Positions 2,239 to 33,540 of a stretch of 64,000 nucleotides of DNA are shown piece by piece (the first letter of the stretch is position 1; every line of letters starts with the position of its first letter). Location of the stretch: the NCBI GenBank assembly GCA_035702665.1, contig DASSQD010000035.1, forward strand, positions 17,719 to 81,718, given 5' to 3'. A program made the position numbers and the translations under genes. Source of the DNA: Burkholderiales bacterium. GTDB lineage: Bacteria > Pseudomonadota > Gammaproteobacteria > Burkholderiales > SG8-39. The notes beneath the pieces are model-generated. The model had not been told where the DNA came from and searched no databases. It saw only the letters and a program-made list of their open reading frames with translations.

Positions 2239-2248
2239 TTCGTTCCGT

Positions 2249-2275: not shown

Positions 2276-2283
2276 GCCGGAAC

Positions 2284-2297
2284 TTGACTCGTGTCAA
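2284..2297. promoter_or_regulatory. Crp/Fnr-family box TTGAC-TCGT-GTCAA upstream of the formate dehydrogenase operon
   Basis: Perfect palindrome, extended to CTTGAC...GTCAAG. The -10-like TAAAAT at 2321-2326 starts 30.5 bp from the box centre, which is class II activator geometry. Confidence 0.65.
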
Positions 2298-2332
2298 GCT
2301 TTTGCGCGTGCGCTCGGACGTAAAATGAGCGC

Positions 2333-4027: not shown

Positions 4028-4043
4028 TGGCTGGAGGTAGCCG

Positions 4044-16650: not shown

Positions 16651-16732
16651 GGTTGAGGTCGCAGTACGACCTTAGACTTTTCAAGTTTTGGGAGACCGCA
16701 GCGTGCGGTCCGGCCAACGCAAGGAGACCACC

Positions 16733-18481
16733 ATGGGAACAGTCGAGCCGCAAGTCGCGTCCGGTCCCGACGCGCAAGCACAGCAGGTGACCGACGGCTT
16801 CAACCTGGTCATCGATGCCCTGAAGCTCAACGGCATCGACACGATCTACGGGCTGCCCGGCATTCCGATCACCGACCTCACCCGCCGCGCGCAGGCAGCG
16901 GGCCTGCGCGTGCTTTCCTTCCGTCACGAGCAGAACGCCGGCTATGCCGCGTCGATCGCAGGTTTCCTGACGCAGAAGCCCGGCATCTGCCTGACCGTAT
17001 CGGCGCCGGGCTTCCTCAACGGACTCAACGCGCTCGCGCACGCGACCGTCAACTGCTTTCCGATGATCCTGATCAGCGGCTCGAGCGAGCGGGAAATCGT
17101 CGACCTCCAGCAGGGCGACTACGAGGAGATGGATCAGCTCGCGATCGCCAAGCCGGTCGCCAAGGCGGCCTTCCGCGTGCTGCACGCCGAGGATATCGGC
17201 GTCGGCGTCGCGCGCGCCATCCGCGCCGCTGTCTCCGGCCGCCCGGGCGGCGTCTACCTCGACATGCCCGCGAAGCTCTTTGCGGAGAGCATCGACGCCG
17301 CGGCGGGGAAGAATTCGCTGATCAAGGTCGTCGACGCCGCGCCGCGCCAGATACCCGCGCCGGAGGCGGTCAAGCGTGCGCTCGACCTGCTGAAGGGCGC
17401 GAAGAAGCCGCTCATCATCCTCGGCAAGGGCGCGGCGTATGCGCAGGCCGATGCCGACATCAAGTCCCTGGTGGAGAAGTCCGGGATTCCCTACTTGCCG
17501 ATGTCGATGGCCAAGGGGCTGCTGCCCGACACGCACGAGCTATGCGCCTCCGCCGCCCGCTCCTTCGTGCTGCCCGGCGCCGACGTGGTGATGCTGATCG
17601 GCGCGCGCCTCAACTGGCTGCTCTCGCACGGCAAGGGCAAGACCTGGGGCGGCAAGGGGTCCAAGGACTGGGGTGGCCAGAAGTTCATCCAGATCGACAT
17701 CTCGCCTCAGGAAGCGGACAGCAACGTGCGCATCGACGCGCCACTGGTCGGCGATATTGGGTCCTGCGTATCCGCGCTGCTTGCGGGCGTCGGATCGCTG
17801 CCCAGGCCGCCGGCCGAGTGGCTGAACGCGGTACATGAGAAGAAGACGACCAACGTCGCCAAGATGGCCGAGACGCTGTCGAAGAATCCCTCGCCGATGA
17901 ATTTCCACAGCGCGCTGAACGTGGTGCGCGATGTCGTCAAGGCCAACCCGGACGCGATGCTCGTCAACGAGGGCGCGAATGCCCTCGACTTCACGCGCTC
18001 GATCGTCGACATGTACAAGCCGAGAAAGCGCATCGATGTCGGCACCTGGGGCATCATGGGCGTCGGCATGGGCTACTGCGTCGCAGCGGCCGTAGTCACC
18101 CAGCAGCAGGTGATCGCGATCGAGGGCGACAGCGCCTTCGGCTTCTCCGGCATGGAAGTCGAGACGATCTGCCGCTACAACCTGCCGGTGTGCATCGTGA
18201 TCATGAACAACAACGGCGTCTACAAGGGCACCGACGTCGATCCGAACGGCCGCGATCCGGCGCCGACCGTGTTCGTCAAGGGCGCGCGCTACGACAAGCT
18301 GATCGAGGCTTTCGGCGGCGCCGGGGTGAACGCCACGACCCCCGCCGAGCTGAGGAAGGCGATGGAAGACGCGATCCGCTCGAAGAAGCCCACGCTCATC
18401 AACGCCGTCATCGACGAGACCGCGGGCACCGAGAGCGGTCGCATCACAAGCCTGAACCCGAACGCCGGAAAGAAGAAGTAA
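16733..18481 (+). CDS. oxc: Oxalyl-CoA decarboxylase (ThDP-dependent)
   Basis: About 582 aa. [28 protein letters not shown] at the N-terminus, ThDP motif [31 protein letters not shown], adjacent to frc. AAGGAG RBS. Confidence 0.9.
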
Positions 18482-18484
18482 GCC

Positions 18485-19756
18485 ATGCAAGCCCTCAAGG
18501 GAGTCCGCATCCTCGACATGACGCACGTCCAGGCGGGCCCGACCTGCTCGCAGTTGCTCGCCTGGATGGGCGCCGACGTGATCAAGTTCGAGAACCCGCA
18601 GGGCGACGCGACGCGCGGCCAGCTGCGCGACGTGCCCAACGCCGACTCGCTGTACTTCACCATGCTCAACTGCAACAAGCGCTCCATCACGGTGAACATG
18701 AAGAGCGCCGAGGGCAAGACGGTGTTCGTCGATCTGCTGAGGAAATGCGACATCATCATGGAGAACTTCGGGCCCGGCGTGCTCGACCGCTTCGGCTTTT
18801 CCTGGGAGAAGATCCACGAGATCAACCCCAAGATCGTGATGGGCTCGATTAAGGGTTTCGGCTCCACCGGGCCGTACGCCGACTTCAAGGCCTACGAGAA
18901 CGTCGCGCAGGCGATGGGCGGCGCGATGAGCACCACCGGCGTGCCCGACGGGCCGCCGTTTGTCACCGGCGCGCAGATCGGCGACTCGGGGACAGGCCTG
19001 CATCTCGCGATCGGCCTGCTCGCCGCGCTGCGCCAGGCAGACAAGACCGGCCAGGGTCAGTACGTCGAAGTCGCGATGATGGACGGGGTGATGAACTTGT
19101 GCCGAGTCAAGTTCCGCGACCATCAGCGCCTGACGCGCGGGTCCCTCTCGGAATACTCGGTGCCGACCTACCAGAACATGGGCGATGTGCCGCGCGCCGG
19201 CAACGACTCGGGCGGCGGCCAGCTCGGCAACGCGGTCCATTGCAAGCCGCACGGAGCGAACGACTGGCTTTACGTGGTCGTGCAGGAAGCGGTGTGGGAA
19301 GACCTCGCGAAGCGCATCGGTCCGGACGTCGGCGTACCCGACCTCGCGACCGATCCGCGGGTGGCGACCATCGGCGAGCGCCGCAAGAACCAGAATCTCG
19401 TGTGGACGCTGCTCAACAAGTTCGCCGAGAAATACACCAAGCGCGAGCTGATGGCGATCCTCAACCCACTCGACGTGCCCTGCGGCCCGATCATGTCCAC
19501 CGAAGACCTGGCTACCGACGAGCACGTGCGCGGCCGCGACATGTGGGTCGAGCTCGATCATCCCAAACGGGGCAAGTGGTACAACGTCGGCATGCCGATC
19601 AAGCTCTCGGCCTCGCCCGCTGCGATCAAGCGCTCGCCCATGCTCGGGGAGCACACCGATGAGATCCTGAAGGAAGTCCTTGGGTACGACGACGCCAAGG
19701 TCGCCGGCCTCAAGCAGGCGGGCGCGTTCTCGATTCCTCCGAAGAAGGCGGCGTAG
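18485..19756 (+). CDS. frc: Formyl-CoA:oxalate CoA-transferase (family III CoA-transferase)
   Basis: [36 protein letters not shown]..., 423 aa, 3-nt gap after oxc. Confidence 0.9.
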
Positions 19757-19758
19757 GA

Positions 19759-20691
19759 ATGAAAATAGCCATCATCGGCCAGCAGGACTTCGGCAAGGCG
19801 GTCCTCGACGCCTTTCTCGCGCGCGGCGACCAGGTCGCCGGCGTGTTCTGCGCCCCGGAGAAGGAAGGCGCCAAGGCCGACGTCCTCAAGGTGGCCGCGC
19901 AGGAAAAGGGCGTGAAGGTGTTCCAGTTCTCTTCGCTGCGGGACAAGCAGGCGCACGATACGATGCGTTCGCTCGGCGTGGACCTAGGGGTCATGGCCTA
20001 CGTGCTGCAATTCGCGCCGCAGGATTTCGTGAACATCCCGAAGAAGGGCACCCTCCAGTATCACCCGTCGCTCCTCCCCAAGTACCGCGGCCCGAGCTCG
20101 ATCAACTGGCCCATCATCCGCGGAGACACCAAGACCGGTTTGACCATCTTCCGTCCGAATGACGGACTCGACGAAGGTCCGGTGATCCTGCAGAAAGAGA
20201 CGCCGATCAGCGCCGACGACACCCTGGGTAGCGTATATTTCGACCGCCTCTTTCCCATGGGTGTGAAGGCGATGCTGGAAGCGGCGGACCTGGTGACGGC
20301 GGGCAAGCACAAGGAGACTGTCCAGGATGAGGCCCTCGCGAGCTACGAAGGCTGGTGCCGCGCCGCCGAGGCCAAGATCAACTGGGCGAACCACGTCGAT
20401 TTCACCTATAACCTCATCCGAGGCTGCAATCCGGCCCCGGGCGCATGGACCACGCTCGCCGGCAAGAAGGTCCAGATCTTCGACGCCCGCAAGCACCTGG
20501 TGCGCACGTTCGGCGCAGTAAAGGGCAAGATCGGCGAGATCTCGGAGATCGGCCCGCAGAGCTTCTTCGTAACCGCCCAGGGAGGTCGGATCGAGGTGCT
20601 CAAGGCGAAGCACGAAGACGGCAAGAAGGTCTCCGCTGCGGAATTCGTCTCGCAGAACGGCATTGCGTCGGGCGCTCTGCTCGGCGGCTAG
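19759..20691 (+). CDS. Formyltransferase-family protein (Fmt / 10-formyl-THF dehydrogenase N-terminal hydrolase-like, N- and C-terminal domains)
   Basis: 310 aa. QYHPSLLPKYRGPSSINWPIIRGDTKTGLTIFRPNDGLDEGPVILQ carries the formyltransferase His and Asp. The start lies 2 nt after the frc stop. Confidence 0.7.
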   Translation: MKIAIIGQQDFGKAVLDAFLARGDQVAGVFCAPEKEGAKADVLKVAAQEKGVKVFQFSSLRDKQAHDTMRSLGVDLGVMAYVLQFAPQDFVNIPKKGTLQYHPSLLPKYRGPSSINWPIIRGDTKTGLTIFRPNDGLDEGPVILQKETPISADDTLGSVYFDRLFPMGVKAMLEAADLVTAGKHKETVQDEALASYEGWCRAAEAKINWANHVDFTYNLIRGCNPAPGAWTTLAGKKVQIFDARKHLVRTFGAVKGKIGEISEIGPQSFFVTAQGGRIEVLKAKHEDGKKVSAAEFVSQNGIASGALLGG

Positions 20692-20937
20692 TCCTCTCCC
20701 CTAACCCCGTCGCGCCGCGGCGGACTCTCGGCAGGATTTGACGGGCCCAGCATTCACTGCAAGAATGCCGCCCAGGATTCTGTTTATTCAGGAACTTATC
20801 GCATCTTGGGAAAGCTCCGGCCGCAGACCCCGAGGTCGGGTCCGGCCGGAAACGGAGAAGGTGGGTAGCGTAGAATGCGAGTGCGAAACGGGGGCATTTC
20901 CCTCGCCAAACAATAATAAGAACAAGCGGGAGAGGCG

Positions 20938-23505
20938 ATGAGCAAAGCGGGCTTCTGGAAAAAGGACTGGTTCCTCGGTCTGGTGGTGTCGCTCGTGCTG
21001 TTGTTCGCCGGTGGCTCGCAGCTGATCCAGAGCCTGGAGCGCACGGCCTACGACTGGGGCGTCAGGGCGTCCTCGCGGATACCTTCCGACAAGGTCGCGA
21101 TCATCGCGATCGACAAGCAGAGCATCGACAACATCGGCCGCTGGCCCTGGTCGCGCGAGATTCACGCGAAGATGATCGAGCGACTCGCGGGCGTGAAGGC
21201 GAAGGTCATCGGCTACACGGTGTTCTTCTCGGAGCCGCAAATCGACCCGGGGTTCGCCTACGTCAACCGGCTTCTCGAGACCTACCACAAGATCGTTCCG
21301 GCCGACGCGAGCACGCCGCCCCGCGGCGTCTCCCCCGAAGTGCTGGAGATGGGCACTACGCTGCAGGAAGCGGAAAACGCGCTTAACACCGACCGGAAGC
21401 TGGCAGACAGCTTCGCCAAGGCGGGAAATGTGGTGCTGCCGATACTCTTCACCTTCGGCGAGCCACGCGGCAAGCCCGACAAGCCGCTTCCTGACTTTGT
21501 GCGGAAGAACGCGCTCGCCTTCCAGGGCAAGAGCGAGGACCTGCCGTTGCTCACGTCGGGGGTCGAGGTCCCCGTGGTCGAGAGCCTGGGCGCCGCGGCC
21601 GCGGCGGTGGGGCACCTGAACGCGGTTCCCGACGTCGACGGAGCGATTCGCACCGAGGCTTTGGCGATCACCTACTACGACGAGTTCTACCCGTCGCTCG
21701 CGGCGATGCTGGTGGCCAAGAGCCTCAACCTCACGGCCCAGGACATAAAGATTCGCCCGGGCGAGGCGCTGCAGATCGGGAATTTCAAGGTGAGCGCCGA
21801 TCCAACGATGCAGATGTACACGTACTTTTACAAGGACCGCGACGGCAGGCCCGCAATTCCGGAGGACTCGTTCTTCGACGTCGCGAGCGGCAAGATCCCG
21901 CTGGACAAGTACCGCGACAAGATCGTTCTTATCGGTCCGACCGCGGCCGGCGTCGGCAGTGTCTTCGTGACGCCGGTGAATCCGGCGATGTCGTCGGTCG
22001 AGCTCCTCGCCCACACGGTTTCCTCGCTGCTGCAAGGGCATTTCTTCGTCGCGCCCACCTGGGGCTGGATCGTCGAGAGGCTGGTGTTCCTGGTGGTCGC
22101 CGCGTACCTGATCGCGCTGCTTCCGCGTCTGTCCGCGGGCTTGGGCGCCGGTATCACTGCCGGCATCGTCGCATTGCTGCTCGCAACCCACTTCGTGCTC
22201 ATGACGGGTCAGGGGATGTGGCTGCAGCTCATGCTGCCGCTCACGCTCCTCGTCGTGGGGCACGTGCTGCTCGTGACCAAGCGCTTCATGGTCACGGAAC
22301 GCGGCAAGGAAGTGTCCGATGCACAATCGGCCGCGAACGCGCGCATGCTCGGCCTGGCGTTCCAGGGTCAGGGCCAGCTCGACATGGCCTTCGACTATTT
22401 CCGCAAGGTCCCGCTCGACGACACCGTGATGGACAACCTCTACAACCTCGCGCTGGACTTCGAGCGCAAGCGCCAGTTCAACAAGGCCGAGGCGGTGTTC
22501 AGCTACATGGCCGGGTACAACCCCAAATTCCGAGACCTCGAATCCAAGCTCTCCCGCGCCAAGCAGATGTCGGAGACAGTCATTCTCGGTGGGGCGACGA
22601 CCCACCCGGGCGGCACGCTGGCGCTGGGCGGAGGGACGGAAAAGCCGATGCTCGGGCGCTACCAGGTCGAGAAAGAGCTAGGCAAGGGCGCCATGGGTGT
22701 CGTATACCTGGGTAAGGACCCGAAGATCGGCCGGGTCGTCGCTATCAAGACGATGGCGCTGTCGCAGGAATTCGAGGCGGACGAGTTGGCCGAGGTAAAG
22801 GAGCGGTTCTTCCGGGAGGCGGAGACGGCGGGGCGCTTGAGCCACCCGAACATCGTGACGATCTTCGATGCCGGCGAAGAGCACGACCTGTGCTACATCG
22901 CGATGGAGCTTCTGAAGGGAAAGGACCTGATTCCCTATACCAAGGCCGGCAGCACCCTCCCGCTGGAGAAGGTCGTATCGATTGTCGCGCGGGTCGCCGA
23001 TGCGCTGGGGTACGCGCACAAGCACAACGTGGTGCACCGGGACGTCAAGCCGGCGAACGTCATGTACGAGCTGGAGAACGACGTGGTCAAGGTGACCGAT
23101 TTCGGCATTGCCAGGATCACCGACTCCTCCAGGACGAAGACCGGTATGGTGCTGGGCACGCCGTCCTACATGTCACCCGAGCAGCTGCAGGGAAAGAAGA
23201 TCGACGGTCGCAGCGACCTGTTCTCGCTCGCGGTCAGCTTGTACCAGTTGGCCTGCGGCGAGCTGCCCTTCAAGGGAGAATCGATGGCGCAGCTCATGTA
23301 CAAGATCGCGAACGAGGACGCCCCTGATATCCTGAAGTACAACACCACGCTTCCCCCGGCGTTCGTCGCGTTTCTGGACAAGGCCATGTCGAAGGAGGCC
23401 GATCAGCGCTTCCAGACCGGCGAGGAGTTCGCCTCTGCGTTACGGGCTGCCGTTGGCGGTACGGGTGCCGCTGCGGCGGGCACCGGGGTCGACATCACCC
23501 TCTGA
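20938..23505 (+). CDS. CHASE2 sensor / TM / TPR-like / Hanks-type Ser/Thr protein kinase
   Basis: 855 aa. The N-terminus has TM1 then IAIDKQSIDNIGRWPWSR (CHASE2), and three TM segments at about residues 380-450. The C-terminal kinase carries GKGAMGVVYLG, VAIKTM, HRDVKPANV, DFGIAR and GTPSYMSPE. Confidence 0.85.
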   Translation: MSKAGFWKKDWFLGLVVSLVLLFAGGSQLIQSLERTAYDWGVRASSRIPSDKVAIIAIDKQSIDNIGRWPWSREIHAKMIERLAGVKAKVIGYTVFFSEPQIDPGFAYVNRLLETYHKIVPADASTPPRGVSPEVLEMGTTLQEAENALNTDRKLADSFAKAGNVVLPILFTFGEPRGKPDKPLPDFVRKNALAFQGKSEDLPLLTSGVEVPVVESLGAAAAAVGHLNAVPDVDGAIRTEALAITYYDEFYPSLAAMLVAKSLNLTAQDIKIRPGEALQIGNFKVSADPTMQMYTYFYKDRDGRPAIPEDSFFDVASGKIPLDKYRDKIVLIGPTAAGVGSVFVTPVNPAMSSVELLAHTVSSLLQGHFFVAPTWGWIVERLVFLVVAAYLIALLPRLSAGLGAGITAGIVALLLATHFVLMTGQGMWLQLMLPLTLLVVGHVLLVTKRFMVTERGKEVSDAQSAANARMLGLAFQGQGQLDMAFDYFRKVPLDDTVMDNLYNLALDFERKRQFNKAEAVFSYMAGYNPKFRDLESKLSRAKQMSETVILGGATTHPGGTLALGGGTEKPMLGRYQVEKELGKGAMGVVYLGKDPKIGRVVAIKTMALSQEFEADELAEVKERFFREAETAGRLSHPNIVTIFDAGEEHDLCYIAMELLKGKDLIPYTKAGSTLPLEKVVSIVARVADALGYAHKHNVVHRDVKPANVMYELENDVVKVTDFGIARITDSSRTKTGMVLGTPSYMSPEQLQGKKIDGRSDLFSLAVSLYQLACGELPFKGESMAQLMYKIANEDAPDILKYNTTLPPAFVAFLDKAMSKEADQRFQTGEEFASALRAAVGGTGAAAAGTGVDITL

Positions 23506-23520
23506 ATCGGGCCGAGCGCC

Positions 23521-24345
23521 ATGAGCCTGTCGGGAGCACTGGAGATCGCGAGCTGTACGGATCCCGGGATGGTGCGGGCTCACAACGAGGACTCGATCGC
23601 CTCCGACGGGGAAAAGGGACTGGTGGTCCTCGCCGACGGAATGGGGGGCTACAACGCGGGGGAGGTGGCGAGCGGCATGGCGACGACGGTGATCATCACC
23701 GAGTTGCAGCACTTGCTCGACAAGAGGACCCCGTACGAAACCGACGCGGCGAGCGGCCAGGTGATCGCGCACCAGCTGCTTCACGAGCAGATCGCCAAGG
23801 CGAACACCTCGATCTATCAGGCAGCGCAGAGCCAGCCTCAGTACGCCGGCATGGGGACGACACTGGTCGTCGCCCTGTTCTACGACAACAAGATGACGGT
23901 GGCGCATATCGGCGATTCACGCCTCTATCGCATGAGAGGCGACGAGCTGAAGCAGATCACCAAGGACCACTCCCTGCTGCAGGAGCAAATCGACAGCGGG
24001 GTGATCACCCCTCAGCAGGCCAAGCAATCGCAGAACAAGAACCTGGTCACGCGCGCTCTGGGCATCGATCCGATCGTCGAGCCCGAGATCCACGATCACG
24101 AGACGCAGCCGGGAGACATCTATCTGCTCTGCTCGGACGGCCTTTGTGATATGGTTGGCGACGAGGACATCGGCCTGGCGCTGCAAACACTGAGCTCCAA
24201 CTTGAAGCTGTGCGCACAGCATCTGGTGCAGACGGCGAACGACAACGGGGGCCGGGACAATATTTCGGTAATACTCGTTCGGGTGCTGCGGGACTTCCCC
24301 GCTTCGCGCGGCATCGTTGGCAAGCTGATGAGCTGGTTTAGATAG
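23521..24345 (+). CDS. PP2C-family Ser/Thr protein phosphatase
   Basis: 274 aa with RAHNEDS, LADGMGG, GTTLVV and SDGL..., NGGRDNISV motifs. Confidence 0.85.
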   Translation: MSLSGALEIASCTDPGMVRAHNEDSIASDGEKGLVVLADGMGGYNAGEVASGMATTVIITELQHLLDKRTPYETDAASGQVIAHQLLHEQIAKANTSIYQAAQSQPQYAGMGTTLVVALFYDNKMTVAHIGDSRLYRMRGDELKQITKDHSLLQEQIDSGVITPQQAKQSQNKNLVTRALGIDPIVEPEIHDHETQPGDIYLLCSDGLCDMVGDEDIGLALQTLSSNLKLCAQHLVQTANDNGGRDNISVILVRVLRDFPASRGIVGKLMSWFR

Positions 24346-24365
24346 TTGAGCAGAGGGATACTGCT

Positions 24366-25124
24366 ATGGCGAAGCTGATACTGAGCATGGACGGCCTGGT
24401 TCTGAAGGAAATCAACTTGACCAAGGAACGTACCACCATCGGCCGCAAGCCGCATAACGACATCCAGATCGACAATCTCGCGGTGAGCGGGGAGCACGCC
24501 GTGATTGTCACCATCCTGCAGGATTCGTTTCTCGAGGACCTCGGCAGCACGAACGGAACGGTCGTGAACGGACAATCGATCAAGAAGCACTTCCTGCAGA
24601 ACAACGACATCATCGAGCTAGGCAAGTACAAACTCAAGTACGTCAACGAGACGCCCGCGGGCATGGCGAAAGCCGCCGATTTCGAGAAAACCATGGTTCT
24701 GCGCCCCGGCGCGACTAGGCCAGCGGCATCCGCTGCTCCCGCCGCGCCGGTAGCCGCGGCCGCACCGGCACCCGCGGCGGCGAAGGCTGGCGACACCGTC
24801 CAGGGGCCTGCCACGACCATGCCACCGGCGGCTGCCAAGCCGGCGACGAGCGCCCCGCAGAAATCGGCGGCCCTGCAACTCCTTTCCGGGGCGAACGCCG
24901 GCAAGGAGCTCGATCTCACCAAGCCGCTCACGACGCTCGGCAAGCCTGGCGTGCAGGTCGCCGTCATCACGCGCAGGCCCCAGGGGTTCTTCATCACGCA
25001 TGTCGAGGGGGCCAGCTTTCCGGTGGTGAACGGCAAGCCGCTCGACGCCCAGGCGCACGCGTTGAACGATCACGACGTGATCGAGCTGGCCGGAGTCAAG
25101 ATGGAATTCTTCCTGAAGGCGTGA
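24366..25124 (+). CDS. FHA-domain protein (canonical N-terminal FHA, Ala/Pro-rich linker, degenerate C-terminal FHA-like domain)
   Basis: N-terminal TIGRKPHNDIQIDNLAVSGEHAVI...STNGTVVNG carries the G-R / S-x-x-H / N-G signature. The C-terminal domain (TTLGKPGVQVAVI...ITHVEG...VNGK) lacks the Arg and Ser. Confidence 0.8.
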   Translation: MAKLILSMDGLVLKEINLTKERTTIGRKPHNDIQIDNLAVSGEHAVIVTILQDSFLEDLGSTNGTVVNGQSIKKHFLQNNDIIELGKYKLKYVNETPAGMAKAADFEKTMVLRPGATRPAASAAPAAPVAAAAPAPAAAKAGDTVQGPATTMPPAAAKPATSAPQKSAALQLLSGANAGKELDLTKPLTTLGKPGVQVAVITRRPQGFFITHVEGASFPVVNGKPLDAQAHALNDHDVIELAGVKMEFFLKA

Positions 25125-25158
25125 GCCCGGGGCCCGACGTCCGCCGCGGGGAGGGAGC

Positions 25159-27420
25159 CTGAAGCAGCATATCGTCCGAATTGCGCTTGGCCTCCTCGTC
25201 ACGCTGGTCTTTCTGGGGCACGCCGCCAAGCTCTATCAGATAGGGTTCATTACCCAGCTCGACAACATCATCTACGACTATCGGCTGCGCCTGACCATGC
25301 CGGGCACGGTCGACGACAGGATCGTAATCCTGGACATCGACGAGCGCAGCTTGGACCCGCGCGCTCTGGGGCGCTGGCCATGGAGCCGCGACAAGATCGC
25401 AGTGCTCCTCCAGAAGCTGTTCGACAAGTACGGCGTTCTCATCGTCGGCTTCGACGTCGTCTTCGCCGAGCCGGACGAGAGCTCCGGCCTCCCGGTCCTC
25501 GAGCGGCTGGGTAAAACACGTCTCAAGGACATCGGCGCCTTCCAGTCCGCGCTCGTGCAGTTGCGCCCCGAGCTGGATTACGACACGAGCTTCGCGAACT
25601 ACATTCGCGGACGGCCCGTGGTCCTCAGCTACTATTTCAACAGCGACAAGAACGCGGTCGAGAGCGGCGCGCTGCCCGAGCCCGTTCTCCCAGCCGAAAC
25701 GTTCAGCGGAAGGCGGATCACGATCCTCGATTGGCGCGGGTACACGGGTAACCTGGCCGAGTTCCAGGCGAATGCCAGCGCCGGTCATTTCAATCCGCGG
25801 GTGGACGACGACGGTGTATCACGGCGCGTGCCGATGCTCGCGGAATACAAGGGCCAGTACTACGAGGCGTTCTCCCTGGCGATCGTGCGGATGTACCTCG
25901 CGATCCAGGAAGCGGCGAGAAGCAAGGCGGCCGCGGTCAAGCTGCCGGATGTCAAGATCAACGCGATCCCGGATCGCTTCGTCACGCGCGGCTACACGGG
26001 AGTGGAGTGGCTCGAGGTGGGCCCCCTCAAAGTGCCCGTAGACGACGAAATTGCCGCGCAGGTTCCGTACCGCGGCCCGAGAGGCAGCTTCCCCTATGTT
26101 TCGCTGGCGGACATCTGGTCGGACAAAGTTGCGTCGGAGAAACTCCGAGGCAAGATCGCGCTGGTCGGCGCTACCGCGCCCGGCCTGTTCGATCTTCGTT
26201 CCGCACCGGTCGGGAATGTCTACCCTGGGGTGGAAATACACGCCAACCTGGTTGCAGGAATTCTCGACGGCAAGCTCAAGCAAAAGCCGCCGTACATGCT
26301 CGGTGCGGAAGTGGTGCTCCTTGTTATCGGCGGCATCGCGCTCACGTTTTTGATTCCCTTGCTTTCGCCCCTCTGGGCCTCGGCCGCGGCGCTGATCGGG
26401 ACGGCCCTCATTACACTCGTCGACCTCGCGCTGTGGTCGTATTCCGGCTTGGTGCTGCCCCTCGCCGCGTCGGTCCTGATGACTGCCACTCTGTATACGG
26501 TCAACATGGCTTACGGGTACTTCGTCGAGGCGCGTTCCAAGCGGCAGTTCACGGAGCTCTTTGGGCAATATGTCCCACCAGAGCTGGTGGACAAGATGGC
26601 CGAAGACCCGCAGCAGTATACGATGGAGCCGCACAACGCCGAGCTCACCATCCTGTTCTCCGACGTACGCGGATTTACCAGCATTTCGGAAGCGCTCAGC
26701 CCCGAGCACCTGCGCGAATACATCAACGAGTACTTGACCGACATGAGCGACATCATCCGCGCGAAGCACCGCGGCACGCTCGACAAGTACATCGGCGACG
26801 CGATCATGGCGTTCTGGAATGCCCCGGTCGAGGACAAATTCCACCCCCGCAGTGGCGTTCTCGCTGCGATGGAGATGCTGCGCCAGTGCGATGTCTTGAA
26901 CCAGAGGTTCGCCGCGCGCGGATGGCCGACACTCAAGATCGGCATCGGCGTCAACTCCGGAAACGTGCGCGTCGGCGACATGGGGTCCAAGATACGCAAG
27001 GCGTACACCGCGATGGGCGATGCGGTGAACGTTGCCTCGAGACTGGAAGGCAGGACCAAGCATTACGGGGCAGGGATACTCGTCGGTGAGGAGACACGCA
27101 AGGTTGTCCAGGACGTGGTTTTCAAGGAGATCGACAAGATCAAAGTCAAGGGGAAGGACGAGGCAATCACGATCTACGAGCCGGTCGGGATGGAGACCCA
27201 CGTCGAAAAGCGGGTTCTCGAGGAGCTCAAGCTCTGGCACCAGACACTGCGGCAATATCGCCTGCACCAGTGGGACCAGGTCGAGGTGGGTCTACTGAAT
27301 CTGCAGCGCATGAATCCCGACTGCTACCTCTACAAGCTGTACGCCAGCGAGGTCGCCGACAAGCGCCGTAATCCGCCGCCGGCCGGGTGGGACGGCGTAA
27401 CGGTGTTCGATGAAAAATAG
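25159..27420 (+). CDS. CHASE2 sensor / TM / class III adenylate cyclase (IIIb-like), probable non-canonical CTG start
   Basis: The first ATG (25297) would remove TM1 and the start of CHASE2. The frame is open from 25117 and encodes LKQHIVRIALGLLVTLVFLGHAAKLYQ..., homologous to the N-terminus of the kinase's CHASE2 domain. GGAGG at 25150-25154. Catalytic domain: ILFSDVRGFT, LDKYIGDAIMAFW, YTAMGDAVNVASRLE. Confidence 0.75.
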   Translation: MKQHIVRIALGLLVTLVFLGHAAKLYQIGFITQLDNIIYDYRLRLTMPGTVDDRIVILDIDERSLDPRALGRWPWSRDKIAVLLQKLFDKYGVLIVGFDVVFAEPDESSGLPVLERLGKTRLKDIGAFQSALVQLRPELDYDTSFANYIRGRPVVLSYYFNSDKNAVESGALPEPVLPAETFSGRRITILDWRGYTGNLAEFQANASAGHFNPRVDDDGVSRRVPMLAEYKGQYYEAFSLAIVRMYLAIQEAARSKAAAVKLPDVKINAIPDRFVTRGYTGVEWLEVGPLKVPVDDEIAAQVPYRGPRGSFPYVSLADIWSDKVASEKLRGKIALVGATAPGLFDLRSAPVGNVYPGVEIHANLVAGILDGKLKQKPPYMLGAEVVLLVIGGIALTFLIPLLSPLWASAAALIGTALITLVDLALWSYSGLVLPLAASVLMTATLYTVNMAYGYFVEARSKRQFTELFGQYVPPELVDKMAEDPQQYTMEPHNAELTILFSDVRGFTSISEALSPEHLREYINEYLTDMSDIIRAKHRGTLDKYIGDAIMAFWNAPVEDKFHPRSGVLAAMEMLRQCDVLNQRFAARGWPTLKIGIGVNSGNVRVGDMGSKIRKAYTAMGDAVNVASRLEGRTKHYGAGILVGEETRKVVQDVVFKEIDKIKVKGKDEAITIYEPVGMETHVEKRVLEELKLWHQTLRQYRLHQWDQVEVGLLNLQRMNPDCYLYKLYASEVADKRRNPPPAGWDGVTVFDEK

Positions 27421-27435
27421 GACGGGCGCCGCTCC

Positions 27436-28203
27436 ATGAAGCTCAGGATTCTGGGCTGCAGCGGAGGCATAGGCGGGCGGCACCTCCGCACGACGTCCAT
27501 GCTGCTGGACAACGATATCCTCGTCGACGCCGGGACCGGGGTAGCAGATCTTTCCCTGACCGAGCTCTCCCTCATCGACCACGTTTTCCTGACACACTCG
27601 CACCTGGACCACATCTCGAGCATCCCGTTCATGGTGGACACGGTCGGTGGAATGCGCGACCAGCCGCTCACGGTCTGGGCAGTACCGGCGACGCTCGAGA
27701 TCCTGCGCAGCCACATCTTCAACTGGAGCGTCTGGCCGGACTTCTCACAGATTCCAAGCCCGGACCAGCCGTTTCTCAGGTATCGCGAGATCCAGGTCGG
27801 CGACACGGTCGAGTTGAAAAAGCGAAAGCTGACGGCGCTTCCCGCCAACCATGTCGTACCCGCCGTCGGGTATCACCTGGATTCCGGAAAGGGCAGCCTG
27901 GTATTCACCGGTGACACCACGACGAACGATCCTCTTTGGGTTATCGTCAACAAGATATCCAATCTGAAGTACCTGATCATCGAGACCGCCTTCTGCAACC
28001 GCGAGAAGGAGCTGGCGGTGATCTCGAAACATCTCTGCCCGAGCATGCTCGCCGACGAGTTGGGCAAGCTCGAGCGCACCGCGGAGATCTACATCACCCA
28101 TCTAAAGCCGGGTGAAATCGAGTTGACCATGCAGGAAATCGAGGAGGACGCAGGCCAGTACCGCCCGCGGATGCTGCAAAACAATCAGGTTTTTGAGTTC
28201 TGA
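27436..28203 (+). CDS. Class II 3',5'-cyclic-nucleotide phosphodiesterase (metallo-beta-lactamase fold)
   Basis: 255 aa. MKLRILGCSGG..., the HSHLDH motif (THSHLDHISSIP) and the overall length match the class II cAMP PDE family. Confidence 0.75.
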   Translation: MKLRILGCSGGIGGRHLRTTSMLLDNDILVDAGTGVADLSLTELSLIDHVFLTHSHLDHISSIPFMVDTVGGMRDQPLTVWAVPATLEILRSHIFNWSVWPDFSQIPSPDQPFLRYREIQVGDTVELKKRKLTALPANHVVPAVGYHLDSGKGSLVFTGDTTTNDPLWVIVNKISNLKYLIIETAFCNREKELAVISKHLCPSMLADELGKLERTAEIYITHLKPGEIELTMQEIEEDAGQYRPRMLQNNQVFEF

Positions 28204-28215
28204 GGCGGGCGGAGG

Positions 28216-29283
28216 ATGTGCGCGACTAGAGTGAGCGCGGAGACGTTGAAAGGCTTCGAGCCCATCGGCTCGCTGCCCGACTCGCGCCTCAACGAGCTCG
28301 CGGGGCTCTGCAAGCTCGAGACGGTCGGCAAGGACTCCGAGTCGTTTCTGGTTCGCAACATCTCCGGACAGGCCGTCTATCTGCTGCGCGGGGAACTAGT
28401 GCTGACCTACCCGGACGGTACGTCGAAGATCCTCGTGGGAGGCTCGGAGCGCTCGCGATATCCGCTCGCACATCGCGGCGAAGTCTTCACGAGCGCCAAG
28501 GCCGTCACGGAAGTGGAGCTGATGCGCATCGACGACGACCTTCTCGACGTCATGGCAACTTGGGATCAGGTCGCCGCGGTCGAGAGCTCGCCGAAGAAGA
28601 CCGCAAAGGAGAGCGGCGCATTCGCCAACTGGTCGATGATGTCGGGGATGTTCAGCGTCAGCAGCCTGAAGTACGGTGCTTTCTCGCAATTGCCGCCGGC
28701 ACATATCGACGAGCTGCTGGGTCGCTTCGAGCGCGTTACGTTCAAGAAGGGCGATGTCGTGATTCGCGAGGGTGCGGAGGGCGACTTCTATTTCGTGATC
28801 GAAACGGGCCGGTGCAGGGTCGAGCGGATGGTCGGGGGAGTGTCCATGCTGCTCGCCGAGCTGAAGAGCGGAGACGCTTTCGGCGAGGAGGCGCTGGTGT
28901 CCGAGGTCAAGCGCAATGCCACGGTGACGATGAAGAGCGACGGCACATTGCTGAAGCTATCGAAGAAGGATTTCGTGGAGCTGCTGCGCGAGCCGCTGCT
29001 GCAGCGCATATCCGCGGAGGACGCGCGCGCGAAGGTGGTCGACGGTGCGCAGTGGATCGACGTGCGCTATCCGTCCGAATACCAGTACGACAAACTTCCC
29101 GGGGCCATCAATATTCCCCTGTCGGACATTCGCAATGCCTTCGGCGCCCTGGACAAGGGAAAGGAGTACGTGCTCTACTGCCAGAGCGAGCGCCGCAGCG
29201 CCGCGGCGGCGTTTCTCATGGCCCAGCGGGGGTACCGGGCGTACGTGCTCGCGGGCGGCCTCTGGGGCGAAACGAAGCGGTGA
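28216..29283 (+). CDS. Cyclic-nucleotide-binding domain protein with a C-terminal rhodanese domain
   Basis: A degenerate N-terminal CNB-like domain. A second CNB domain has an intact phosphate-binding cassette (GDAFGEEALVSEVKRNATV). The C-terminal rhodanese has WIDVRYPSEY...YCQSERRSAAAA, including the active-site Cys loop. Confidence 0.8.
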   Translation: MCATRVSAETLKGFEPIGSLPDSRLNELAGLCKLETVGKDSESFLVRNISGQAVYLLRGELVLTYPDGTSKILVGGSERSRYPLAHRGEVFTSAKAVTEVELMRIDDDLLDVMATWDQVAAVESSPKKTAKESGAFANWSMMSGMFSVSSLKYGAFSQLPPAHIDELLGRFERVTFKKGDVVIREGAEGDFYFVIETGRCRVERMVGGVSMLLAELKSGDAFGEEALVSEVKRNATVTMKSDGTLLKLSKKDFVELLREPLLQRISAEDARAKVVDGAQWIDVRYPSEYQYDKLPGAINIPLSDIRNAFGALDKGKEYVLYCQSERRSAAAAFLMAQRGYRAYVLAGGLWGETKR

Positions 29284-29451
29284 GGGCGCGCGCAAAGCGG
29301 GTATTCCGACCGGTCAGGCGCGATTCTCGCTTGCTGGAAAGCAGTTGCAGGCTCCGGCGCGTGAATAACGCCCGGCCGCGCACGGGTGAACGGTGGTAAA
29401 GTAATTGATTATCTGGCCATTTCGGGTGCTGGACACTAGGGTGGGTTGCCA

Positions 29452-31818
29452 ATGAGCGCGGTACTACAGACGCACGTGGGCGCGGCCGGCGATGTCAACA
29501 GCCGGTTGAATTTCCAGAAGAATCTCCAGAGCGTCACCAACAAGATCCACGCCACCACCAACGTGGATGAGATCATGCTGGAAGTCAGCGCCGACATCTG
29601 CACCTTGTTCAACGCCGACCGCCTGACGATCTACACCGTGGGCGAGGACAAGCAGAGCATTGTCTCCAAGGTCAAGACGGGCCTCAACTCGTTCAAAGAC
29701 CTCAAGCTGCCCATCGCAGAGCACTCCATCGCAGGCTTCGTTGCGCTGTCGAAGAAGATGCTCAGCCTGAGGGACGTCTACGACGAGAGCGAGCTCAGGG
29801 CACACAATCACAATTTGCGCTTTCTGCAGGAAGTCGACAAGCGCACGGGCTATCGCACCAAGCAGATGCTGGTTGCGCCGGTGGCGGAGCCCGGAAGCGG
29901 GGAACTGGTCGGTGTAGTCCAGTTAATCAACAACAAGGCCGGCGTTCCCTTTGGCCAACTCGCCGAAGAGGGCGTGAGCGAGCTTTGCCAGACGCTGGCT
30001 ATCGCCCTCAAGCAGCGCCAGAAGCCGCAGGTTCTCAAGACCAAGTACGACTTCCTCGTCGGCGACGCGGTGATCTCCGCCGCGGAGTTCGAGCTGGCGG
30101 CGCGCTCGGCGCGCAAGAAGGCGGTCGACGTCGAAGATGTGCTGACCCAGGAATTCCAGGTCAAGCTTCCCGCGATAGGCGCGGCGCTGGCGAAGTTCTT
30201 CGGGACGCCCTACGAGCCTTTCAAGCCGGATCGCATCAAGCCGATGGATCTGCTGAAGAACCTGAAGCGCGAGTACGTGGATTCCAATCAATGGGTCCCG
30301 ATCGAGGATTCCAAGGAAGGCCTCGTTATCCTTTGCCTCGATCCGGAGCGAATCAAGAGCTCGCGCATCGTCCAGAACGTCTTCCCGGGCCGCAAGCTGA
30401 CGTACCGCGTCACGACTCTCAAGGAGTTCAAGGACACGCTCAAGGCCTTCTATGGCGCGGACGCGGTCGACAGCGGCGACATCGGCGACATGCTTCACGA
30501 CCTCCAGGAAGACGAAGGTCCGGCGGAGACGGGGGATGACGATGTTTCGGCGGCGGCCGACAACGAGTTGGTCAAGCTGGTCAACAAGATCATCATCGAT
30601 GCCTACAACCAGGGTGCCTCCGACATCCACATCGAGCCTTATCCGGGCAAGGGGAAGACCGAGATCCGACTAAGAAAAGACGGCTCGCTGGTTCCCTATA
30701 TCGAGGTCCCGGGGTCCTACCGGAACGCCATTGTGGCGCGCATCAAGATCATGTGCGATCTCGACATCTCGGAAAAGCGCAAGCCGCAGGACGGCAAGAT
30801 CAAGTTCAAGAAATTCGGGCCGCTCGACATCGAGCTGCGGGTGGCGACGATTCCGTCCCAGGGCGGCGTCGAGGACGTGGTCATGCGTATCCTCGCCGCG
30901 GGGGAGCCTATCCCGATCGACAAGCTGGGGCTTTCGCCTTCAAACCTGCCAAAGCTCAAGGAGACGGTCAGCAAGCCCTACGGGCTGTTCTTCTGCTGCG
31001 GTCCCACTGGCTCGGGCAAGACCACGACGCTGCACTCGGTGCTGGGTTTCCTGAACACGCCCGACACCAAGATCTGGACTGCCGAGGACCCGGTCGAAAT
31101 CACGCAGAAAGGCCTGCGCCAGGTGCAGGTCAACAAGAAGGCGGGTCTCGATTTCGCTGCGGTCATGAAGTCCTTCCTCCGCGCGGATCCGGACATCATC
31201 ATGGTCGGCGAGATGCGCGACAAGGAGACCACCGGGACCGGCATCGAGGCCTCGCTCACGGGTCACTTGGTGTTCGCGACGCTGCATACCAACAGCGCTC
31301 CCGAATCCATCATCCGCTTGCTCGACATGGGTATGGACCCCTTCAATTTCGCCGACGCGCTGCTGGGGATTCTCGCGCAGCGGCTGGCCAAGCGCCTCTG
31401 CAGCAAGTGCAAGCAGCCCTACGCCGCCGGCGCGGACGAGATGAAGCATATCCTGCAAGAGTATTGCACCGAACTTCTGAATACCGGCCCGTTCAAGAAG
31501 GACGCCAAATCAGCCTACGAGCATGTCTACCGTGACCTTGCGAAGCACTACGCCAACGACAAGGGGCAGTTCACCCTTTACAGGGCCAAGGGCTGCGATG
31601 CCTGCGGCAATACGGGATACAAAGGGCGGGTCGGTCTGCACGAGCTCCTGATTGCGTCCGATCACCTCAAGAAGTTGATCCAGGAGCACGCGCGGGTAGC
31701 CGAGATCCTGGCGCTCGCCCTTGAAGAAGGTATGCGGACCCTGAAGATGGATGGCATCGAGAAGGTGCTTCAAGGCATTACCGACATGCCGCAGGTCCGC
31801 GCGGTCTGCATCAAGTAA
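29452..31818 (+). CDS. PilB/GspE-family secretion ATPase with an N-terminal GAF domain and a T2SSE_N domain
   Basis: About 788 aa. The GAF domain lies at about residues 30-190 (...FLQEVDKRTGYRTKQMLVAPV...GVVQLINNK). Walker A GPTGSGKTT, Walker B DPDIIMVGEMRD, His box GHLVFATLHTN, tetra-Cys CSKC...CDAC. ATG at 29452 (track start: TTG at 29446). Confidence 0.85.
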   Translation: MSAVLQTHVGAAGDVNSRLNFQKNLQSVTNKIHATTNVDEIMLEVSADICTLFNADRLTIYTVGEDKQSIVSKVKTGLNSFKDLKLPIAEHSIAGFVALSKKMLSLRDVYDESELRAHNHNLRFLQEVDKRTGYRTKQMLVAPVAEPGSGELVGVVQLINNKAGVPFGQLAEEGVSELCQTLAIALKQRQKPQVLKTKYDFLVGDAVISAAEFELAARSARKKAVDVEDVLTQEFQVKLPAIGAALAKFFGTPYEPFKPDRIKPMDLLKNLKREYVDSNQWVPIEDSKEGLVILCLDPERIKSSRIVQNVFPGRKLTYRVTTLKEFKDTLKAFYGADAVDSGDIGDMLHDLQEDEGPAETGDDDVSAAADNELVKLVNKIIIDAYNQGASDIHIEPYPGKGKTEIRLRKDGSLVPYIEVPGSYRNAIVARIKIMCDLDISEKRKPQDGKIKFKKFGPLDIELRVATIPSQGGVEDVVMRILAAGEPIPIDKLGLSPSNLPKLKETVSKPYGLFFCCGPTGSGKTTTLHSVLGFLNTPDTKIWTAEDPVEITQKGLRQVQVNKKAGLDFAAVMKSFLRADPDIIMVGEMRDKETTGTGIEASLTGHLVFATLHTNSAPESIIRLLDMGMDPFNFADALLGILAQRLAKRLCSKCKQPYAAGADEMKHILQEYCTELLNTGPFKKDAKSAYEHVYRDLAKHYANDKGQFTLYRAKGCDACGNTGYKGRVGLHELLIASDHLKKLIQEHARVAEILALALEEGMRTLKMDGIEKVLQGITDMPQVRAVCIK

Positions 31819-31865
31819 GGCGGCGCGACGCCGCTCGATCCACGGCCGGCTACCCTGGGGGGTTC

Positions 31866-33521
31866 TTGGAGACCGACGAAGATCTGTTTCGCCGTCTCGA
31901 GCAGCTTAACGAGATCGGCTCTGCCCTCTCGCAGGAGAAAGATATCGATCACCTGCTGGAGAAGATCCTTCTCGCGGCGAAGGCGATCACGCGTGCCGCG
32001 GGCGGTACCCTGTACGTCCTGGAGCCCTCCGATGAGGGCCCGCGGCTCAGGTTCGCGATCATGAGGAACGAGGCATTGGGCATTGCGATGGGAGGCACCA
32101 CCGGCAACCCCATACCCTTCTATCCGGTTCACCTGTACGGAAAGGACGGAAAACCGAACAACCAGATGGTCGCTGCGTATGCGGCCCTTACCAGCAAGAC
32201 GGTCAACATCGCAGACGCCTATTCGGAAGAGGGTTTCGATTTCTCCGGGACACGCAATTTCGACAGGAAGACGGGATACCGATCCAAAGCTTTCCTCACC
32301 GTTCCGATGAAGAACCACGAAGGCGAGATCATCGGCGTGCTCCAGTTGATCAACCGCATGGAGCCGGGAACGAACGAGGTAGGCCCTTTTGCCTCGTCCG
32401 ACCAGCGTCTTGCGGAATCTCTCGCGTCGCAGGCTGCCATCGCGCTTACGAATCGGCAGCTCATCAATCAGCTCGAGGTATTGTTCGAGTCCTTCATCGC
32501 GCTCATCAACACCGCTATAGACGAGAAGTCCCCGTACACGGGGGGGCACTGTCAGCGCGTCCCTGTGCTCACGATGATGCTCGCCGAGGCTGTCAACGAG
32601 ACTTATGAAGGGCCGCTTCGCGAATTCAAGATGACCGACAAGGACCGCTATGAGCTTAAGATAGCCGGCCTGCTGCACGATTGCGGGAAAGTGACGACTC
32701 CGGTGCACGTCGTGGACAAGGCCACCAAGCTCGAGACGATCTTCGACCGGATCAATCTTCTGGACACGCGTTTCGAGGTGCTCAAGCGCGATCTCGAGAT
32801 CGAGGCGTTGATGCGCAAGCTTGAGGTCGCGCGGAAGCGTGGCCTGAGCGAGAGCGCTGCGCGCGAGGAATCGGCGCGCGTCGACGAGGGCTATCGCGAA
32901 GGTCTGCGGGCCCTGGAAAGCGACCGCGAGTTCCTGCGTCACGCCAACATCGGGGGTGAGGTCATGTCGGCTGAGGCGCGTGATCGCGTGGTCCGCATCG
33001 GTACCGGGCGCAAGTGGGTCGACGCGACAGGGAACATGGCGGACTTCCTCACGCCCGACGAGATCAACAACCTCACGATCGCTCGCGGTACGCTGACCCA
33101 GGAGGAACGCGAGACCATCAACCACCACATCGTCGCTACGATAAAGATGCTTGAGGCGCTGCCTTGGCCCAAGCATCTGCGCAACGTCCCGGAATACGCC
33201 GGCGGTCACCACGAACGCATGGACGGGAAGGGCTATCCCCGGGGACTGACGCGCGAGAAGATGTCCGTCCAAGCCCGGGTCATGGGGATTGCCGACATAT
33301 TCGAGGCACTGACGGCGAAAGACCGGCCGTACAAGCGCGGCAAGACTCTCTCCGAGTCGCTGAAGATTCTAGGCAACTTCCGGTTGAACGGCCACATCGA
33401 TCCGGACCTGTTCGACGTATTCGTGCGCAAGAAGGTGTATTTGCGCTATGCCGAACAGTTCCTCGACCGTGATCAGATCGACGAGGTCGAAGAGTCCAAG
33501 ATCCCGGGATTCGTGCCGTAG
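31866..33521 (+). CDS. GAF-domain HD-GYP phosphohydrolase (putative c-di-GMP phosphodiesterase)
   Basis: 551 aa. N-terminal GAF (...NFDRKTGYRSKAFLTVPM...GVLQLINRM). HD-GYP core: LLHDCGK ... GGHHERMDGKGYPRGL. TTG start. Confidence 0.85.
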   Translation: METDEDLFRRLEQLNEIGSALSQEKDIDHLLEKILLAAKAITRAAGGTLYVLEPSDEGPRLRFAIMRNEALGIAMGGTTGNPIPFYPVHLYGKDGKPNNQMVAAYAALTSKTVNIADAYSEEGFDFSGTRNFDRKTGYRSKAFLTVPMKNHEGEIIGVLQLINRMEPGTNEVGPFASSDQRLAESLASQAAIALTNRQLINQLEVLFESFIALINTAIDEKSPYTGGHCQRVPVLTMMLAEAVNETYEGPLREFKMTDKDRYELKIAGLLHDCGKVTTPVHVVDKATKLETIFDRINLLDTRFEVLKRDLEIEALMRKLEVARKRGLSESAAREESARVDEGYREGLRALESDREFLRHANIGGEVMSAEARDRVVRIGTGRKWVDATGNMADFLTPDEINNLTIARGTLTQEERETINHHIVATIKMLEALPWPKHLRNVPEYAGGHHERMDGKGYPRGLTREKMSVQARVMGIADIFEALTAKDRPYKRGKTLSESLKILGNFRLNGHIDPDLFDVFVRKKVYLRYAEQFLDRDQIDEVEESKIPGFVP

Positions 33522-33540
33522 GTCCCGGGAATACGGTTTG

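Follow-up and report, generated by a model that had tools for sequence, protein, structure and literature searches.

Two distantly related CHASE2 receptors in a conserved betaproteobacterial gene cassette that may couple cAMP and threonine phosphorylation to a pilus-type ATPase

The DNA analyzed here, referred to as the window, is a stretch of 64,000 nucleotides from a Burkholderiales bacterium (GenBank assembly GCA_035702665.1, contig DASSQD010000035.1, positions 17,719 to 81,718 of the forward strand). It encodes two membrane receptors that carry a periplasmic CHASE2 sensor, one with a Ser/Thr kinase and the other with an adenylate cyclase as its output, within a row of closely spaced genes that recurs in other betaproteobacteria. 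CHASE2 is a widespread bacterial sensor domain without a solved structure, as judged by sequence and fold searches of the PDB. The two receptors and their sensors, the latter also covered by AlphaFold2 (AF2) models, occupy the following positions:

20938..23505, + strand: CHASE2 receptor Ser/Thr kinase, 855 aa (open reading frame, Pfam, catalytic motifs)
21037..22065, + strand: periplasmic CHASE2 domain of the kinase (AF2 model)
25159..27420, + strand: CHASE2 receptor adenylate cyclase (class IIIb), 753 aa (Pfam, start-codon evidence, catalytic residues)
25228..26310, + strand: periplasmic CHASE2 domain of the cyclase (AF2 model)

Domains were assigned with Pfam, equivalogs with NCBIfam cut-offs, and transmembrane (TM) helices by hydropathy. 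The kinase consists of TM1 (residues 12-33), CHASE2 (34-376), TM2-4 (377-447, with helices at 377-395, 404-422, and 429-447), a TPR-like linker (approximately 470-545), and a Hanks kinase domain (575-826). The Pkinase profile and all catalytic motifs of a Hanks-type Ser/Thr kinase are present, namely, GxGxxG at residue 582 (GKGAMGVV), VAIK at 601, HRD at 700 (HRDVKPAN), DFG at 721, and SPE at 746; because the Gly-rich loop and the other four motifs are kept, the protein looks catalytically competent. Its orthologues (53-93% identity) all carry CHASE2, with or without Pkinase. Among 1.84 billion library representatives, 243 match the periplasmic domain of the kinase at E ≤ 1e-30, a number that rises to 3549 at E ≤ 1e-10. 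The outputs of library representatives of ≥700 aa were typed by phmmer with kinase, linker, cyclase, and histidine-kinase domains; the kinase was present in 57 of the best 61, and the TPR-like linker was present in 53 of those 57.

The cyclase consists of TM1 (residues 5-23), CHASE2 (24-384), TM2-4 (385-448, with helices at 385-403, 407-425, and 430-448), and a cyclase domain (approximately 494-671). It keeps D502, K543, D547, T617, N624, and R628, among which we take, in line with class III motifs, D502 and D547 to be the metal-binding aspartates, K543 and T617 the substrate-defining pair, and N624 and R628 the transition-state residues, an arrangement typical of class IIIb enzymes that are specific for ATP. 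With all of these residues and the Guanylate_cyc profile, the protein falls in class III (subclass IIIb) of the adenylate cyclases, and it looks active because the residues are kept, with cAMP as the predicted product. Orthologues at 74-98% identity all combine CHASE2 with a cyclase domain.

The length of 753 aa depends on the choice of start codon. The first ATG, GTG, or TTG of the open reading frame is ATG 25297, downstream of TM1, and TM1 is encoded only if translation begins at CTG 25159, where an in-frame extension (LKQHIVRIALGLLVTLVFLGHAA...) starts directly after GGAGGGAGC. In the synteny comparison of the window proteins with 80 genome loci holding a cyclase homologue (numbered L001 and so on), the codon homologous to CTG 25159 is TTG in L002, L003, and L048, with the same GGAG and 5-nt spacing, and L001 also has CTG. 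A 754-aa homologue begins MRQHLVRIALGLL. With L001 as the reference, 10 of the 46 window codons in 25159-25296 differ synonymously and 4 non-synonymously; in the 34 bases preceding the CTG, 18 positions differ and the Shine-Dalgarno stretch is conserved. The homologous TTG with its spacing, the 754-aa homologue, and the bias toward synonymous differences from L001 thus support a start at CTG 25159. Many database relatives of the cyclase are called at 707-708 aa, without TM1 (e.g., P0121 and P0130-P0140), and their automatic gene calls begin at an internal ATG. These short entries are a systematic annotation error; in the window and in L001 the call is truncated because the start codon is CTG.

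An earlier note on this DNA had described the receptors as two paralogous CHASE2 modules with different outputs, each with one TM helix before the sensor and three after it. The different outputs are evident from the Pfam scores (CHASE2, 185.4 bits in the kinase and 168.8 bits in the cyclase; Pkinase, 184.3 bits; Guanylate_cyc, 79.1 bits), and hydropathy confirms the topology in both proteins. Both sensors score above the CHASE2 (PF05226) cut-off of 26.3 bits and have the extracytoplasmic topology of the family. The two peptides that the note had quoted were found, VAIIAIDKQSIDNIGRWPWSREIHAKMIERL at residues 53-83 of the kinase open reading frame and IVILDIDERSLDPRALGRWPWSRDKIAVLLQKL within the open reading frame ending at 27420, and the window contains only two RWPW motifs in all six frames. 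The AF2 models (predicted local distance difference test [pLDDT] 90.9 and predicted TM-score [pTM] 0.86 for the kinase sensor; 82.6 and 0.82 for the cyclase sensor) place long helices at the TM positions predicted by hydropathy, and their secondary-structure elements occur in the same order. Pairwise, the sensors align over 474 residues with 26% identity (E = 2e-24), and the homology is therefore real.

The closeness of this relationship is what decides whether the two receptors can be regarded as duplicates. The earlier note took them to be a duplicated module, possibly of recent origin, that receives one periplasmic signal and converts it in parallel into phosphorylation and cAMP. Their common topology, the same order of structural elements, and the shared hallmark motifs IDxxS...GRWPWxR, GH.N..D.DG..R, and K..LIG.TA.G would all be expected of duplicates. 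The similarity between the two sensors does not, however, exceed that to unrelated CHASE2 proteins, the very result that the note had named as its refutation. In phmmer comparisons the kinase periplasmic domain scores 71.0 bits against the neighbouring cyclase, a median of 72.1 bits (range, 55-97) against 79 foreign cyclase sensors, and 76-85 bits against three CHASE2 histidine kinases; on the scale of the library of 1.84 billion representatives the neighbouring cyclase sensor would have E = 1.1e-14. Orthologues of each window sensor exist in other genomes at 44-98% identity. In a multiple alignment of 102 sensors, the kinase sensor of the window shares 23% identity with the neighbouring cyclase sensor, a mean of 22% with alpha- and deltaproteobacterial cyclase sensors, and 27% with the three histidine kinases, so that it is nearer to the latter than to its neighbour.

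A neighbour-joining (NJ) tree of these 102 sensors (corrected p-distances, 459 alignment columns, 100 bootstraps), with the histidine-kinase sensors from Ralstonia, Variovorax, and Cupriavidus replicons as the outgroup, grouped the kinase sensors with the syntenic cyclase sensors in 0 of 100 bootstraps. All cyclase sensors, the alpha- and deltaproteobacterial ones included, were split from the kinase and histidine-kinase sensors in 100 of 100. Recent duplication is refuted by the bit scores and this grouping together. The comparisons place the two window sensors in two anciently separated CHASE2 lineages, each travelling with its own output type, and date their split before the spread of CHASE2 cyclases across proteobacterial classes. 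What stands of the claimed paralogy is the homology of the modules, with a similarity that is generic to CHASE2.

The conservation patterns of the two families point in the same direction. With conserved positions defined as those at least 90% conserved within a family, the periplasmic domain of the kinase family has 129 of them and that of the cyclase family 142. The two families agree in the residue at only 44, 25 of these being generic to CHASE2; 27 further positions are conserved in both families with differing residues, 58 and 71 are specific to one family, and 85-98 positions per family are thus not matched in kind by the other. The 25 generic positions may reflect a common ligand class for the whole CHASE2 family, and this can be said in favor of a shared ligand, against which the 85-98 unmatched positions per family and the age of the split have to be set. 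Since the sensors are not a recent duplication, nothing implies that they receive the same signal, and we infer from the divergent patterns that the two read different cues. Overall, we consider the reading of a duplicated sensor with one ligand and parallel outputs improbable. The structure predictions, which had been proposed for a comparison of ligand pockets, agree in the order of their elements and find no counterpart in the PDB: phmmer returned no PDB sequence relative of the CHASE2 sensors, and neither model had a PDB fold match (best Foldseek E = 0.37-0.41, TM-scores < 0.2). This absence of a PDB structural neighbour is a property of the whole CHASE2 family and not of this locus, and without a fold match we draw no ligand-pocket analogy.

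The association between sensor type and output has exceptions elsewhere. Some cyclases (P0340, P0341, P0362, P0374, P0375, P0383, and P0386) carry a kinase-type CHASE2 sensor, which matches the kinase sensor of the window at 143-166 bits and 32-34% identity, about twice the score of the neighbouring cyclase. The pairing of sensors with outputs has therefore been reshuffled on at least one occasion within the CHASE2 family.

The genes around the two receptors lie on the same strand and form, with them, a conserved cassette. Its other members in the window are as follows (MBL, metallo-beta-lactamase; cNMP, cyclic nucleoside monophosphate):

23521..24345, + strand: PP2C-type Ser/Thr phosphatase, Stp1/IreP family (Pfam PP2C, NCBIfam)
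24366..25124, + strand: FHA protein, 252 aa (Pfam FHA, 78.8 bits, residues 23-86)
27436..28203, + strand: MBL-fold cyclic-nucleotide phosphodiesterase, class II-like, with an HSHLDH motif (Pfam)
28216..29283, + strand: cNMP-binding and rhodanese protein (Pfam cNMP_binding, 69.1 bits; Rhodanese, 56.2 bits)
29446..31818, + strand: assembly ATPase of the PilB/GspE type with the order GAF - MshEN/T2SSE_N - ATPase, 790 aa (Pfam T2SSE, 380.4 bits; GAF; MshEN)
31866..33521, + strand: GAF - HD-GYP-type (HD_5) phosphohydrolase (Pfam HD_5, 151.8 bits; GAF)
36037..36525, + strand: type IVa major pilin with a prepilin leader (motif scan; Pfam Pilin, 49.6 bits; N_methyl, 38.4 bits)

The phosphatase gene begins 15 nt past the kinase gene, and its product scores 254.9 bits in Stp1_PP2C_phos (cut-off, 230), which assigns it to the Stp1/IreP type. 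The first domain of the FHA protein carries GR...SGEH...NG (residues 23-70), as would be expected of a phospho-threonine reader. An Ala/Pro/Thr-rich linker connects it to a C-terminal domain (approximately residues 170-252) that reads as FHA-like in sequence and is degenerate, without the Arg/Ser/His residues of phospho-threonine binding. The phosphodiesterase has Pfam scores of 62.6 bits (Lactamase_B_2) and 52.3 bits (PDEase_II). Intergenic gaps measure 12-34 nt from the kinase gene through the cNMP-binding/rhodanese gene and 162 nt 5' of the ATPase gene. A promoter and terminator scan of 20400-36200 gave counts not above the shuffled expectation; one promoter-like site (20738-20766) lies 5' of the kinase gene and is, on its own, not evidence.

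The full order of the cassette is CHASE2-kinase, PP2C, FHA, CHASE2-cyclase, MBL phosphodiesterase, in some loci the cNMP-binding/rhodanese protein, GAF-PilB-like ATPase, in some loci the GAF-HD-GYP protein, and usually a pilin. The core order kinase-PP2C-FHA-cyclase-phosphodiesterase-ATPase is kept in at least 19 betaproteobacterial loci, and the cassette order recurs at 44-66% protein identity in Burkholderiales metagenome-assembled genomes (MAGs), Polaromonas sp. CF318, Rhodoferax, Variovorax, Ramlibacter, Rhodocyclaceae, and Sulfuritalea. Two further loci, reached from kinase homologues on 1.1-Mb and 0.6-Mb contigs, both show the same cassette. The cNMP-binding/rhodanese gene is confined to the closer relatives L001-L003, L048, and L084. 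Co-occurrence was counted among loci with both flanks readable: 16 contain the full set, 17 (Thiobacillus and other Hydrogenophilales) contain the cyclase and phosphodiesterase only, and 19 (alpha- and deltaproteobacteria) contain the cyclase alone. The phosphodiesterase gene thus lies 3' of the cyclase gene in the 16 full cassettes and in the 17 cyclase-plus-phosphodiesterase loci, and no locus has PP2C and FHA without the ATPase or the ATPase without PP2C and FHA.

This conserved synteny supports a functional link between the kinase and the cyclase. Two signalling systems that are neighbours by chance would fit the distant relationship of the two sensors. Such an arrangement would not be expected to keep its gene order across several betaproteobacterial families at 44-66% protein identity, with gaps of 12-34 nt and, where both flanks are readable, co-occurrence without exception, and we regard chance proximity as very unlikely.

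Housekeeping genes lie on both flanks of the cassette. In the window an oxalate/formate set (568-6851 and 16688-20691) precedes it, with an MFS transporter, NAD-linked formate dehydrogenase subunits, an oxalyl-CoA decarboxylase-like TPP enzyme, a formyl-CoA transferase-type CoA-transferase, and a formyltransferase-like gene; the last three also lie 5' of the cassette in L001 and L085, and frc and fmt only in L002. The cassette of L085 appears in short gene calls, the kinase in 2 pieces, the cyclase in 3, and the ATPase in 4, a pattern that looks like long-read frameshift errors rather than real pseudogenes.

The ATPase and its GAF domain suggest where the two receptors could meet. PilB and GspE are the best NCBIfam families of the ATPase, which by fold is of the PilB/GspE type and not a certified orthologue of either. 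Its MshEN match covers residues 252-339, and the arginine-containing c-di-GMP motif was not found by eye. The GAF domain in front of it finds in the PDB the tandem GAF structure 1YKD of Anabaena CyaB2 (E = 1.9e-25) and the mammalian PDE10A (9.5e-9) and PDE2A (1.6e-7), and in the alignment to the CyaB2 and phosphodiesterase GAFs YRT...P and V.QL.NK are common stretches. For the HD-GYP protein, the best GAF matches are those of PDE5 (E = 7.6e-21), with CyaB2 also among the matches. Taken together, the top PDB matches of the cassette GAF domains are CyaB2, PDE10A, PDE2A, PDE5, and PDE6. The GAF domains of CyaB2 bind cAMP (PMC4411481), and those of the cassette may do the same.

A pilin gene belongs to most of these neighbourhoods. 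The same pilin gene lies 3' of the ATPase or GAF-HD gene in 14 syntenic loci, approximately 100-200 nt 3' of the ATPase in L004, L005, L007, L008, L011, L012, L013, L015, and L020, 3' of the GAF-HD gene in L003 and L048, and farther downstream in L002, L010, and L014. In the window it is flanked by genes for a TPR and GT41-type glycosyltransferase and for a TPR protein with a PMT_2-like membrane domain (33448-35856 and 36583-38274), and the pilin with its flanking genes could be a pilin-glycosylation set. In L018 (4765-6497, a Polaromonas MAG) no ATPase gene lies between the phosphodiesterase gene and the pilin gene farther 3'; the interval holds two small genes, which on visual inspection resemble a HEPN/nucleotidyltransferase toxin-antitoxin pair.

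We therefore favor, with a probability of about 0.6, a reading in which two old CHASE2 lineages are held in one conserved betaproteobacterial cassette and form a two-input circuit that acts on pilus assembly through cAMP and phospho-threonine. The cyclase and the phosphodiesterase would set the cAMP level, which the CyaB2-like GAF of the PilB-like ATPase would read, as might, in loci that encode them, the cNMP-binding protein and the GAF-HD-GYP protein. A phospho-threonine mark would be set by the kinase together with the PP2C phosphatase and read by the FHA protein. Both arms would converge on the ATPase, making type IV pilus assembly dependent on two envelope cues; the target of the FHA protein and pili as the output are predictions. 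The parallel conversion proposed in the earlier note leaves the other operon genes out of account, and these suggest that the two arms meet at a single ATPase. A more specific version, which we put forward tentatively as a possibility, is a coincidence circuit in which the PilB-like ATPase is a direct cAMP receptor through its CyaB2-type GAF and is additionally licensed by phospho-threonine and FHA, the inputs coming from the two different CHASE2 receptors.

The two arms could instead be arranged in series, with the kinase arm and FHA gating the cyclase and cAMP as the single output. The position of the FHA gene, between the PP2C and cyclase genes and 34 nt 5' of the cyclase start, would suit such a circuit, as would L002, which retains PP2C, FHA, and cyclase even without a kinase gene. 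The cyclase and phosphodiesterase nevertheless occur without kinase, PP2C, and FHA in the 17 loci of Thiobacillus and other Hydrogenophilales, and PP2C and FHA are found only where the ATPase is. Because of this strict co-occurrence the phospho-arm would target the ATPase or a partner of it rather than the cyclase. No threonine is specifically conserved in the cytoplasmic part of the cassette-linked cyclases, and most of the residues specific to these cyclases are periplasmic or in the membrane. This speaks against gating of the cyclase by phosphorylation, and we find the serial arrangement rather doubtful.

The lack of such a threonine also counts against the two-input circuit, and it is one of several points that do. 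The ATPase falls below the NCBIfam cut-offs (PilB, 481 versus 675.65 bits; GspE, 440.3 versus 630.25 bits), and no pilC, pilD, or secretin genes were found near the cassette; it could therefore be a signalling paralogue and not a pilus motor. The pilin gene was not seen within the locus in L006, L009, and L044, and in the window the ATPase and the pilin are 4.2 kb apart, with two genes between them. L002 (2346-5487, a Betaproteobacteria MAG) keeps PP2C, FHA, cyclase, and the downstream genes, with no kinase gene at the expected position, where there is a 535-nt gap. The sensor tree was built by neighbour joining and not by maximum likelihood, and the case for different cues consists solely of divergent conservation patterns. 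With these points weighed, control of a type IV pilus motor appears the most likely role of the cassette.

The combination of a cyclase, a cNMP-binding protein, and a phosphodiesterase also resembles a Pycsar-like anti-phage system with a cNMP-binding effector and an Apyc1-like phosphodiesterase. PADLOC matches the cyclase domain to PycC models (96.9 bits), the cNMP-binding domain to Pycsar effectors, and the kinase to PD-T4-6 models, and the phosphodiesterase of L084 has the Pfam hit Anti-Pycsar_Apyc1. These PADLOC matches are at the level of domains only, to ubiquitous folds. The Lys/Thr pair of the cyclase is characteristic of class IIIb enzymes specific for ATP, the domain joined to the cNMP-binding domain is a rhodanese and not a TIR or pore effector, and the cassette lies amid core housekeeping genes in the same order across several betaproteobacterial families. 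The domain-level matches, the rhodanese partner, and the housekeeping surroundings lead us to reject a defence system, which is extremely improbable here.

In type VI secretion systems, PpkA is a membrane Hanks kinase with a periplasmic domain, and PppA is a PP2C phosphatase, and they are encoded with Fha. The cassette resembles the threonine phosphorylation pathway of the Pseudomonas aeruginosa and Agrobacterium type VI systems (PMC5995506) in that genes for a kinase, a PP2C phosphatase, and an FHA protein lie together, and the type VI apparatus is likewise a secretion-type nanomachine controlled post-translationally. It differs in that the machine would be a PilB/GspE-type ATPase near a pilin, the sensor is CHASE2, and a cAMP writer and eraser are interleaved with the phosphorylation genes.

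On the cAMP side, the closest known counterparts are the CHASE2 cyclases CyaD1, CyaD2, and CyaK of Sinorhizobium meliloti, which have cAMP as their output and respond to an external cue; this cue is the plant protein uL2, which reaches them through NsrA, a protein of the outer membrane (PMC13001267). They share with the cyclase of the window the architecture of a receptor cyclase with a periplasmic CHASE2 and a class III catalytic domain, although its sensor is only 23-30% identical to those of alphaproteobacterial CHASE2 cyclases. In S. meliloti the reader is Clr, a CRP-type transcription factor, whereas GAF and cNMP-binding proteins are encoded nearby here, and the cassette adds a dedicated phosphodiesterase and the kinase/PP2C/FHA module. 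We found no report of a direct CHASE2 ligand in the open-access literature; the S. meliloti study describes an indirect protein cue only (PMC13001267). CHASE2 Ser/Thr kinases have been catalogued in cyanobacteria (Anabaena alr1869 and all4838 and Thermosynechococcus tlr1540; PMC2176072) and likewise have an N-terminal CHASE2 fused to a Hanks-type kinase. That study reports no function or operon context for them, whereas kinases of the betaproteobacterial family contain a TPR-like linker and their genes keep a constant position within the cassette.

The ATPase also departs from known precedents. The GAF domains of CyaB2, PDE10A, and PDE2A, its best solved-structure matches, regulate a cyclase or a phosphodiesterase, whereas here a single GAF precedes a PilB/GspE-type ATPase. 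MshE and PilB ATPases are regulated by c-di-GMP through MshEN, which controls pilus assembly (PMC5013675, PMC6957770), and they share with the cassette ATPase an N-terminal nucleotide-sensing region on a T2SSE-type ATPase; the latter has in addition a cNMP-type GAF in front. Neither a description of this cassette nor one of a cAMP-type GAF on a PilB-like ATPase was found in the open-access literature. Each protein belongs to a known family, and the conserved combination is a new form of known signalling logic.

The locus thus presents a conserved operon with two divergent CHASE2 receptors and not one signal split into two outputs, in which genes for writing, erasing, and reading cAMP and a second set for kinase, phosphatase, and FHA protein accompany a pilus-type ATPase. 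If the two-input circuit is correct, it would add a direct route from cAMP to PilB to the known controls of type IV pili and would extend the kinase/PP2C/FHA logic of type VI secretion to a second case. Culturable hosts (Polaromonas, Variovorax, and Rhodoferax) would then allow CHASE2 signalling to be read out by simple assays, and, should the more specific coincidence circuit hold, dozens of genomes would each offer a matched pair of CHASE2 sensors with separable outputs that are easy to assay, cAMP level and Thr phosphorylation. Such pairs would provide a practical handle on what CHASE2 detects.

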